Shown in pieces: positions 1 to 586 of a stretch of DNA of 8,665 nt. Each line of letters opens with the position of its first letter. The first letter of the stretch is position 1. The notes under the pieces are model-generated. The model worked only from the letters and a program-made list of their open reading frames with translations, had not been told where the DNA came from and did no database searches. Origin of the DNA: Escherichia coli (lineage in GTDB: Bacteria; Pseudomonadota; Gammaproteobacteria; Enterobacterales; Enterobacteriaceae); the NCBI RefSeq assembly GCF_003334355.1, contig NZ_QOWP01000061.1; one strand, given 5' to 3'. A program made the position numbers and the translations under genes.

Positions 1-165
1 GCGCGATTTAGCCCCGACGTATCCCCACTGTTCGTCCATTTCCGCGCAGACGATGACGTCACTGCCCGGCTGTATGCACGAGGTTACCGACTGCGGCCTG
101 AGTTTTTTAAATGGCGGAAAATCGTGTTGAGGCCAACGCCAATAATGCGTGCACTGGCGCGACAT
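1..165 (-). CDS. insB: IS1 InsB (transposase C-terminal part, partial; normally expressed as InsAB' fusion by -1 frameshift)
   Basis: ATG (reverse complement of 163..165) opens a reading frame that is -1 relative to insA and continues off the window start. Manual translation gives [15 protein letters not shown]... then ...[20 protein letters not shown], matching the IS1 InsB pattern. Truncated by the window edge. Confidence 0.75.
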
Positions 166-359
166 CCGACGCCATTCATGGCCATATCAATGATTTTCTG
201 GTGCGTACCGGGCTGAGAGGCGGTGTAAGTGAACTGTAGTTGCCATGTTTTACGGCAGTGAGAGCAGAGATAGCGCTGATGTCCGGCAGTGCTTTTGCCG
301 TTACGCACCACGCCTTCAGTAGCGGAGCAGGAAGGACATCTGATGGAAATGGAAGCCAC
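84..359 (-). CDS. insA: IS1 InsA (transposition inhibitor / N-terminal transposase part, zinc-finger CxxC...CxxC)
   Basis: 91-aa [94 protein letters not shown] with a GTG start (reverse complement of 357..359), as in IS1. It differs at a handful of residues from the K-12 IS1 InsA I remember, so this is an IS1 isoform. Confidence 0.9.
102..108 (-). other. A6C programmed -1 ribosomal frameshift motif of IS1 (insA to insB' fusion site)
   Basis: Reverse complement of 100..111 is TTTAAAAAACTC, containing AAAAAAC near the 3' end of insA, where IS1 frameshifts to make InsAB' transposase. Confidence 0.7.
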
Positions 360-391
360 GCAAGCACCTTAAAATCACCATCATACACTAA

Positions 392-414
392 ATCAGTAAG
401 TTGGCAGCATCACC
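392..414. repeat. IS1 terminal inverted repeat (insA-proximal end)
   Basis: GGTGATGCTGCCAACTTACTGAT on the minus strand; marks the exact junction between IS1 and chromosomal DNA at 414/415. Confidence 0.85.
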
Positions 415-522
415 GCTGAATGGTTCGATATCATTATTGAATTTTAATGAATGAGACAACAAGCGAGAATCACGCACCTACGCCAGAGTAAAATCATTGA
501 ACAGAGAAATGGTGGAATTCAA

Positions 523-556
523 ATACAAAAAAACCGCAAAATTAAAAATCTTGCGG
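523..556 (-). terminator. Rho-independent terminator downstream of tRNA-Asp (aspV)
   Basis: On the minus strand, CCGCAA (551..556) pairs with TTGCGG (534..539), a 6-bp stem with an 11-nt loop, followed by a run of 7 T (plus-strand A run 527..533). The stem is weak but the position immediately 3' of the tRNA fits. Confidence 0.5.
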
Positions 557-586
557 CTCTCTGAACTCATTTTCATGAGTGAATAG

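Follow-up and report, generated by a model that had tools for sequence, protein, structure and literature searches.

The window, as we call the whole stretch of 8,665 nucleotides of Escherichia coli DNA analysed here, contains the chromosomal stretch from aspU to aspV, read in reverse, as shown by matches of its open reading frames (ORFs) to annotated genomes. Between the two tRNA-Asp genes the gene order is that of K-12, namely dnaQ, rnhA, yafS, gloB, mltD, yafE, yafD, yafC, and dkgB. In alignment, bases 415..8665 are identical to those of E. coli PSS-12 (NZ_AP027697.1), an isolate from human faeces in Ecuador, and a single base separates the whole window from that genome in 8,665. The same bases differ from K-12 MG1655 at two positions, and this 8,251-bp flank differs from that of strain LR-24 at six sites; the source of the window is a K-12-like E. 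coli of the phylogroup A type. The yafE ORF (window 5045..5668) has an ATG start and encodes 207 aa, while yafE is given as incomplete, with its N-terminus missing, in the RefSeq entries of PSS-12 and of one K-12 MG1655 assembly (NZ_CP032667.1), and as a full 624-bp gene in ATCC 8739.

A lone tRNA-Asp(GTC) gene lies immediately downstream of dnaQ, and as synteny with K-12 holds from dnaQ to aspU, the gene at 587..663 is aspV, the identity already given in an earlier note on this DNA; ARAGORN, Rfam, and the dnaQ synteny all agree on it. An IS1 segment lies beyond its 3' end. The features of this region are as follows.

1..414, minus strand: partial IS1, IRL/insA side, element positions 355..768, with 1 mismatch to the annotated 768-bp IS1 of PSS-12
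1..101, minus strand: start of the insB' reading frame, cut by the window edge (sequence comparison and emulated frameshift)
84..359, minus strand: insA, 91 aa, GTG start (ORF list, translation, NCBIfam NF033558 and NF050000)
102..108, minus strand: A6C motif (AAAAAAC) for the programmed -1 frameshift that fuses insA to insB' (sequence reading)
380..407, minus strand: promoter-like site in or beside IRL, CTGCCA, 16-nt spacer, TATGAT (consensus scan only)
392..414, minus strand: left terminal inverted repeat (IRL) of IS1, GGTGATGCTGCCAACTTACTGAT (direct reading; same end in K-12 IS1A and PSS-12)
415..423, no strand assigned: 9-bp IS1 target GCTGAATGG, of which the right-hand copy alone is visible in the window (duplicated in LR-24)
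415..586, no strand assigned: AT-rich spacer downstream of aspV, 172 bp, 100% identical to K-12
528..562, minus strand: intrinsic-terminator-like hairpin (16 pairs) followed by U7, between aspV and IS1 (scan)
587..663, minus strand: tRNA-Asp (GTC), aspV (ARAGORN; Rfam RF00005, 67.7 bits; dnaQ synteny)
692..720, minus strand: promoter-like site upstream of aspV, TTGACG, 17-nt spacer, TAATAT (consensus scan only)
8590 to window end, minus strand: second tRNA-Asp(GTC), aspU (ARAGORN; K-12 synteny)

The earlier note had placed an inverted repeat ending at 414 at a distance of 172 bp from the 3' end of aspV, and 415..586 is exactly 172 bp long. The 327-bp intergenic region between aspV and yafT begins with this spacer, and in K-12 the same sequence runs on leftward into the yafT promoter region and yafT, in agreement with the statement in that note that this position leads to the yafT region. 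The orientation claimed for the element is also as stated, as insA and aspV are co-oriented on the minus strand. Folding of 505..586 gave -23 kcal/mol with z = -4.4, and because the hairpin at 528..562 lies between aspV and IS1, any read-through into insA has to pass a predicted terminator. This hairpin with its U7 is of the canonical form, and the description of the terminator as weak in the earlier note has no support here. The promoter-like site at 380..407 is located where the insA promoter of IS1 is to be expected and may be that promoter.

The window has the pattern of a whole contig from a k=77 de Bruijn short-read assembly with repeats at both ends. Its first 77 bases are common to other IS1 copies, base 78 being the first private one, and its last 77/78 bases (8588..8665, in aspU) recur at 585..662 (aspV). 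Since the contig is bounded by repeats and ends within IS1, the left junction of the element cannot be read from the window itself.

Identity and composition of the IS1 element

The segment at 1..414 has the properties of the IS1 family. Emulation of the -1 frameshift gave a continuous product with the expected InsAB' sequence. InsA scored 86.7 bits against the NCBIfam model of the IS1 transposase (NF033558), short of its curated 100-bit cut-off for whole proteins, which was made for the fused transposase rather than for the 91-aa InsA alone; the insB part of PSS-12 scored 143.9 bits, above that cut-off, and InsA passed the own cut-off of the IS1 zinc-binding domain model (NF050000). The window contains 414 bp of IS1, and the element in PSS-12 has the length of about 768 bp that is characteristic of the family (768 bp) as well as the imperfect terminal repeats of about 23 bp (GGTGATGCTGCCAACTTACTGAT / GGTAATGACTCCAACTTATTGAT), with the right repeat (IRR) beginning at L001 14647 in that genome. 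Family members also generate a 9-bp (occasionally 8 bp) target-site duplication, and this is lacking in PSS-12, where the 9-mer immediately left of the element is AATGCTGGA and the one to the right is GCTGAATGG; a missing duplication is expected after a deletion and so has no bearing on IS1 identity. The IS1 elements of E. coli K-12 (IS1A/B/D and IS1F) share the 768-bp length seen in PSS-12, the 23-bp terminal repeats, insA, the A6C motif, and insB'. They share the 9-bp target duplication too, but here it was seen in the LR-24 allele. None of the elements of this IS1/aspV layout is a chance resemblance.

The earlier note had also described InsA as differing at several residues from the K-12 copy and the element as an IS1 isoform. 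The first point is correct and the second right in substance: 6 of 91 residues differ from InsA of K-12 IS1A (V4I, S7R, D15E, T69S, M73I, and L81F) and five from that of IS1F, which K-12 itself carries. When the element was mapped against the IS1 copies of LR-24 and against K-12 IS1A and IS1F, its two parts had different closest relatives.

IS1 positions 1..494 (window up to 140): closest to the IS1B-type copies of LR-24, 0 differences
IS1 positions 495..768 (window 141..414): closest to K-12 IS1F, 5 differences in 274 bp

Over positions 495..768, the IS1A/B-type copies differ by 26-28 bases. The element is a mosaic, IS1B-like on the insB side and IS1F-like on the insA side, and the divergence of InsA follows from the IS1F-like insA segment within it. 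This make-up, together with one private base, sets the window element apart from the K-12 isoforms. The private base is base 78, the sole mismatch of window 1..414 to the PSS-12 IS1, which is A in the window and G in PSS-12, in both LR-24 copies, and in K-12 IS1A and IS1F. In the InsAB' frame it replaces Arg by Cys, and either a genuine private mutation or an error of assembly or sequencing could account for it.

A similar mosaic occurs in LR-24 at the lgoD/lgoT locus (6 differences), and mosaic copies at 98.3% identity are present on many ETEC chromosomes and plasmids. At 99% identity or more, the 414-bp segment was found in just 6 of 20,395 records. One of these is plasmid pSW071614_contig_3 from Galápagos wastewater, with 2 mismatches in 414 and an ISSen4 interrupting the element; PSS-12 and LR-24 are Ecuadorian isolates, like the Galápagos plasmid that carries the same rare IS1 variant.

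The aspV-yafV interval in PSS-12 and other genomes

The specificity of the two junctions was assessed among 5,426 complete E. coli genomes with one 50-nt probe across the right junction and another across the left. The right junction, in the orientation of the window, occurs in two of them only, PSS-12 and LR-24, and the left junction in PSS-12 only. As the window differs from PSS-12 at one base over its full length and its IS1 variant matches PSS-12 and not LR-24, PSS-12 stands in for the window in what follows, and it is from this genome that we infer the left junction of the window's source.

The IS1 of PSS-12 is complete (768 bp, L001 14647..15414), with ...CACTAAAATGCTGGA as its left and GCTGAATGGTTCGAT... 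as its right flank. On the left it adjoins CCACTAAAATGCTGGA, and only about 2.7 kb lie between the 3' end of aspV and the yafV stop. The 792 bp to the left of the element consist of an ISAs1 fragment and 422 AT-rich bases, and this flank is absent at the K-12 locus, where 2,183 bp with yafF', yafU', ykfM, and yafT are found instead. A total of 380 genomes, among them ATCC 8739, E. coli C, IAI1, and E1, have DNA 99.5-99.8% identical to the 422-bp segment, which lies there between the ISAs1 copies beside yafV and the sel1-repeat gene downstream of rhsG. The aspV-yafV interval of PSS-12 thus holds only IS1, the 422 bp, and the ISAs1 fragment, and the tss, hcp, vgrG, and rhs genes are absent from it.

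Strain E1 provides a view of the undeleted arrangement. From aspV and the spacer, its order is yafT, ykfM, a full-length yafU homologue, hcp, vasL, tssM, tssA, vasI, dotU, tssK, tssJ, tagH, tssG, tssF, tssE, tssC, tssB, hcp, vgrG, the RHS core, sel1, the 422-bp segment, ISAs1, and yafV. The two junction points of PSS-12 are 28,791 bp (about 29 kb) apart in E1, and the T6SS-1 island has been sited at aspV in the literature (PMC2808357, PMC2941450). PSS-12 has the hallmarks of an adjacent deletion, with an intact insertion sequence at the joint, one flank of the type left by a simple insertion, a second flank that derives from a distant place in the same orientation, and the interval between them gone. 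Had IS1 inserted into a deletion joint that already existed, a duplication would flank it, and the lack of one implicates the element itself. From this structure, we believe that the IS1 is probably a deletion scar, left when practically the entire aspV T6SS-1/rhsG island, from yafT to sel1, was lost. The suspicion in the earlier note that the window edge borders on an island, a deletion, or a rearrangement mediated by an IS was therefore well founded, given an IS1 without duplication whose left flank is not colinear and comes from the far tip of the T6SS-1 island.

LR-24 shows what a simple insertion at this site looks like. An IS1B-type element occupies this position there in the same orientation, yafT lies to its left, and the 9 bp GCTGAATGG are perfectly duplicated. 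This is exactly the duplication of 415..423 that the earlier note had predicted. As the window shows the right junction only and LR-24 proves that such an allele exists, the actual source strain might likewise carry a simple insertion into K-12-like DNA, with nothing deleted. We regard this as very unlikely, because the IS1 part of the window has 1 mismatch in 414 to PSS-12 and 29 to the LR-24 copy, and because the 8,251-bp flank matches PSS-12 exactly and is six sites off LR-24. An intact duplication with colinear flanks in the strain and all of its relatives, which would leave neither island nor rearrangement to explain, does not hold either, given PSS-12. LR-24 was also considered as the direct ancestor of the PSS-12 structure, but on the aspV side its IS1 departs from the PSS-12/window type at 28 of 274 positions, and the genome lacks the PSS-12 left flank beyond the ISAs1 part; LR-24 is therefore not the direct ancestor, barring gene conversion.

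K-12 carries a remnant of the aspV T6SS-1 island (yafT-ykfM-yafU'-yafF') at the same locus, and the T6SS-1 genes are likewise missing there between aspV and yafV. In that remnant, yafT, ykfM, and a partial yafU are kept and joined to a C-terminal ISAs1 fragment, and the joint is without IS1. PSS-12, unlike K-12, has lost yafT to yafU too, keeps the N-terminal part of ISAs1 and the 422 bp, and has IS1 as its joint. It has one ISAs1 fragment, whereas in ATCC 8739 and E1 a full copy accompanies the fragment.

Several other features of this region were noted in passing. In ATCC 8739, the aspV-yafV interval (L003 21300..40423, L005 1..20624) holds a CP4-like island remnant, a sil/pco copper/silver resistance cluster, and several IS elements with no T6SS genes, and just 6 bp downstream of aspV match the window. 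In PSS-12, the Flag-2 lateral-flagellar genes fliP, fliQ, fliR, flhB, and flhA are kept beside rayT (L001 1..4860), a locus at which K-12 presumably has remnants only; PSS-12 is thus without T6SS-1 at aspV yet has another variable cluster nearby. Within the last ~140 bp of yafV in PSS-12 (L001 13664..13860), the allele switches from the K-12/LR-24 type to the ATCC 8739/E1 type, which represents the variable ISAs1-side boundary of the island. A change of ancestry across IS1, through a recombination import, is not supported: PSS-12 is K-12-like on both sides of the element, and E1, which has the same allele type on the yafV side, also has a K-12-type yafT side.

Routes to the joint

The position beside aspV raises the question of whether the border could be an attachment site. 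As the earlier note had stated, aspV is a known integration tRNA, but the IS1 site is not itself an att site. E1 carries a tyrosine-recombinase island at aspV (L011 14287..14810); at its far border, the final 14 nt of the tRNA (CGTCCGTTCCGCCA) recur and lead directly into the same 172-bp spacer and yafT. This border shows that site-specific islands enter at the tRNA 3' end and that the spacer is the DNA beyond. An island of the integrase type would have a tyrosine recombinase beside the tRNA and a far repeat of its 3' end, and neither was found in PSS-12: no integrase is annotated between aspV and the fliP/Flag-2 genes, and the repeat that had been suggested to lie further left of IS1 is absent from 14.6 kb of that genome, in which the 14-mer occurs only in aspV and aspU. 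The known aspV islands, such as the T6SS-1 island/PAI I of LF82, the T6SS island of EAEC 042, and integrase islands, share this tRNA locus with our case, and the DNA missing here is the T6SS-1 island. The difference is that there is no island, integrase, or att repeat here and that IS1 sits 172 bp past the tRNA instead of at its 3' end.

These observations also bear on the idea that the IS1/aspV junction is an assembly artefact, produced by a false join at a repeat, or else the att border of an integrase-type island. Both are suggested by real features of the data, namely the resemblance of the window to a complete k=77 contig with repeats at both ends and the standing of aspV as an integration tRNA. 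The same junction recurs in a complete genome that was finished independently, which speaks against a false join. Integrase islands at aspV, such as that of E1, have the final 14 nt of the tRNA as their repeat rather than a site 172 bp downstream, and to the left in PSS-12 neither this repeat nor an integrase was found. This reading is already effectively refuted.

We instead favor a deletion brought about by IS1 itself. In the first step, IS1 would have inserted at GCTGAATGG, 172 bp past aspV, a state with an intact duplication that is still visible in LR-24. One-ended (abortive) intramolecular transposition would then have linked the IRR end to another AT-rich target, at the tip of the island nearest yafV, and the intervening DNA, including the left copy of the GCTGAATGG duplication, would have been discarded. 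This order of events, the one-ended mechanism, and the presence of the same left junction in the source of the window are what we consider most likely.

Deletions of this kind are well known. The classical gal-region deletions are IS1-mediated adjacent deletions. IS1 deletions have been described to arise by abortive transposition, in which a nick at one end of IS1 is ligated to a target in the same molecule (PMC10569738). The same work describes deletions at nfsB and at a capsule locus. Our case has in common with such IS1-mediated adjacent deletions an intact IS1 at the joint, one unchanged flank, no duplication, and tens of kb lost on one side. What differs here is that the allele is a natural one, affects the aspV T6SS-1 island, and is read as a deletion from the structure of its ends.

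The same final structure could be produced by RecA-dependent homologous recombination between two direct copies of IS1, of which one lay at aspV+172 and its partner at the yafV-side tip, leaving a single and possibly hybrid element. The absent target duplication fits this route equally well, IS1 copies are abundant (21-23 matching places in PSS-12, as many as 40 in relatives), and a mosaic of IS1B-type (1..494) and IS1F-like (495..768) sequence is what would be expected of a crossover between isoforms. The mosaic was rejected as proof of a crossover in situ, because near-identical mosaics occur at other loci and on plasmids; it is already transposing elsewhere, as at lgoD/lgoT in LR-24, on plasmids, and in ETEC, and need not have originated at aspV. 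Moreover, an IS1 at the left site is found in none of the 5,426 genomes except PSS-12. We therefore consider recombination between two IS1 copies unlikely, although less so than a simple insertion. An intact island with IS1 at +172, the true intermediate, occurs in no genome found; the one-ended route is preferred because the only natural intermediate seen is the simple insertion at +172, with no other genome having an IS1 at the left site.

Repeated use of the aspV spacer by IS1

IS1 has used this site more than once. In TUM14664 (Japan; L012 1756..2523) and 102651 (Gambia; L016), an IS1 in the opposite orientation abuts the same GCTGAATGG. These elements belong to another isoform (92.4% identical) and lack a duplication, and their left endpoint lies inside the ISAs1 fragment by yafV. 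Two weak matches of the junction probe (91.8% identity) that could have been taken for noise proved to be this opposite-orientation IS1 at the same site, and PigCaeca_1 and LR-06 gave single-piece matches to the TUM14664/102651 structure. In D53-1 (L017 1933..2700), an IS1B has made a simple insertion at aspV+169, 3 bp away, with the duplication GAATGGTTC and an intact yafT. Three further joints without duplication lie deeper in the intergenic region:

aspV+217: duplication-less IS1 joint in ET82 (L014)
aspV+237: duplication-less IS1 joint in QEC11-421 (L013)
aspV+282: duplication-less IS1 joint in MLI023K1 (L015)

In all three genomes, ISAs1 or ykfM remnants directly follow the IS1, and each joint represents an independent loss of this region with IS1 at its border. 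QEC11-421 and LR-24 each have a second IS1, without duplication, slightly further in. An IS1 close downstream of aspV is present in 126 genomes in the window orientation and in 68 in the opposite one, which is about 194 of 5,426 with clonal relatives counted. There are at least four independent IS1 events at the same 9-bp target or 3 bp away, and at least three more duplication-less joints within 110 bp, so that the aspV spacer is a place that IS1 targets, and at which deletions end, time and again.

IS1 has a preference for AT-rich DNA and for 9-bp targets that begin and end in G/C. The core of the target here, GCTGAATGGTTCG, has 54% GC and is located between stretches of 13% and 37% GC, 169-172 bp past aspV. 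It is possible, and we offer it tentatively, that GCTGAATGGTTCG is a natural IS1 hot spot precise to the nucleotide and that landings in the spacer have repeatedly triggered loss of T6SS-1/rhsG in commensal-type E. coli, which would amount to a convergent and possibly selected disarmament.

The PSS-12 allele is an ordinary IS1-bounded deletion, a fresh instance of a well-known kind. The phenomenon falls within a known category, and the repeated use of the spacer by IS1 is a side observation to it. The finding explains why the draft contig ends where it does and suggests that the strain has lost its aspV T6SS-1 island by a textbook IS1 process, which makes the locus a convenient natural example for the study of IS1 target choice and of the IS-driven loss of a competition weapon.
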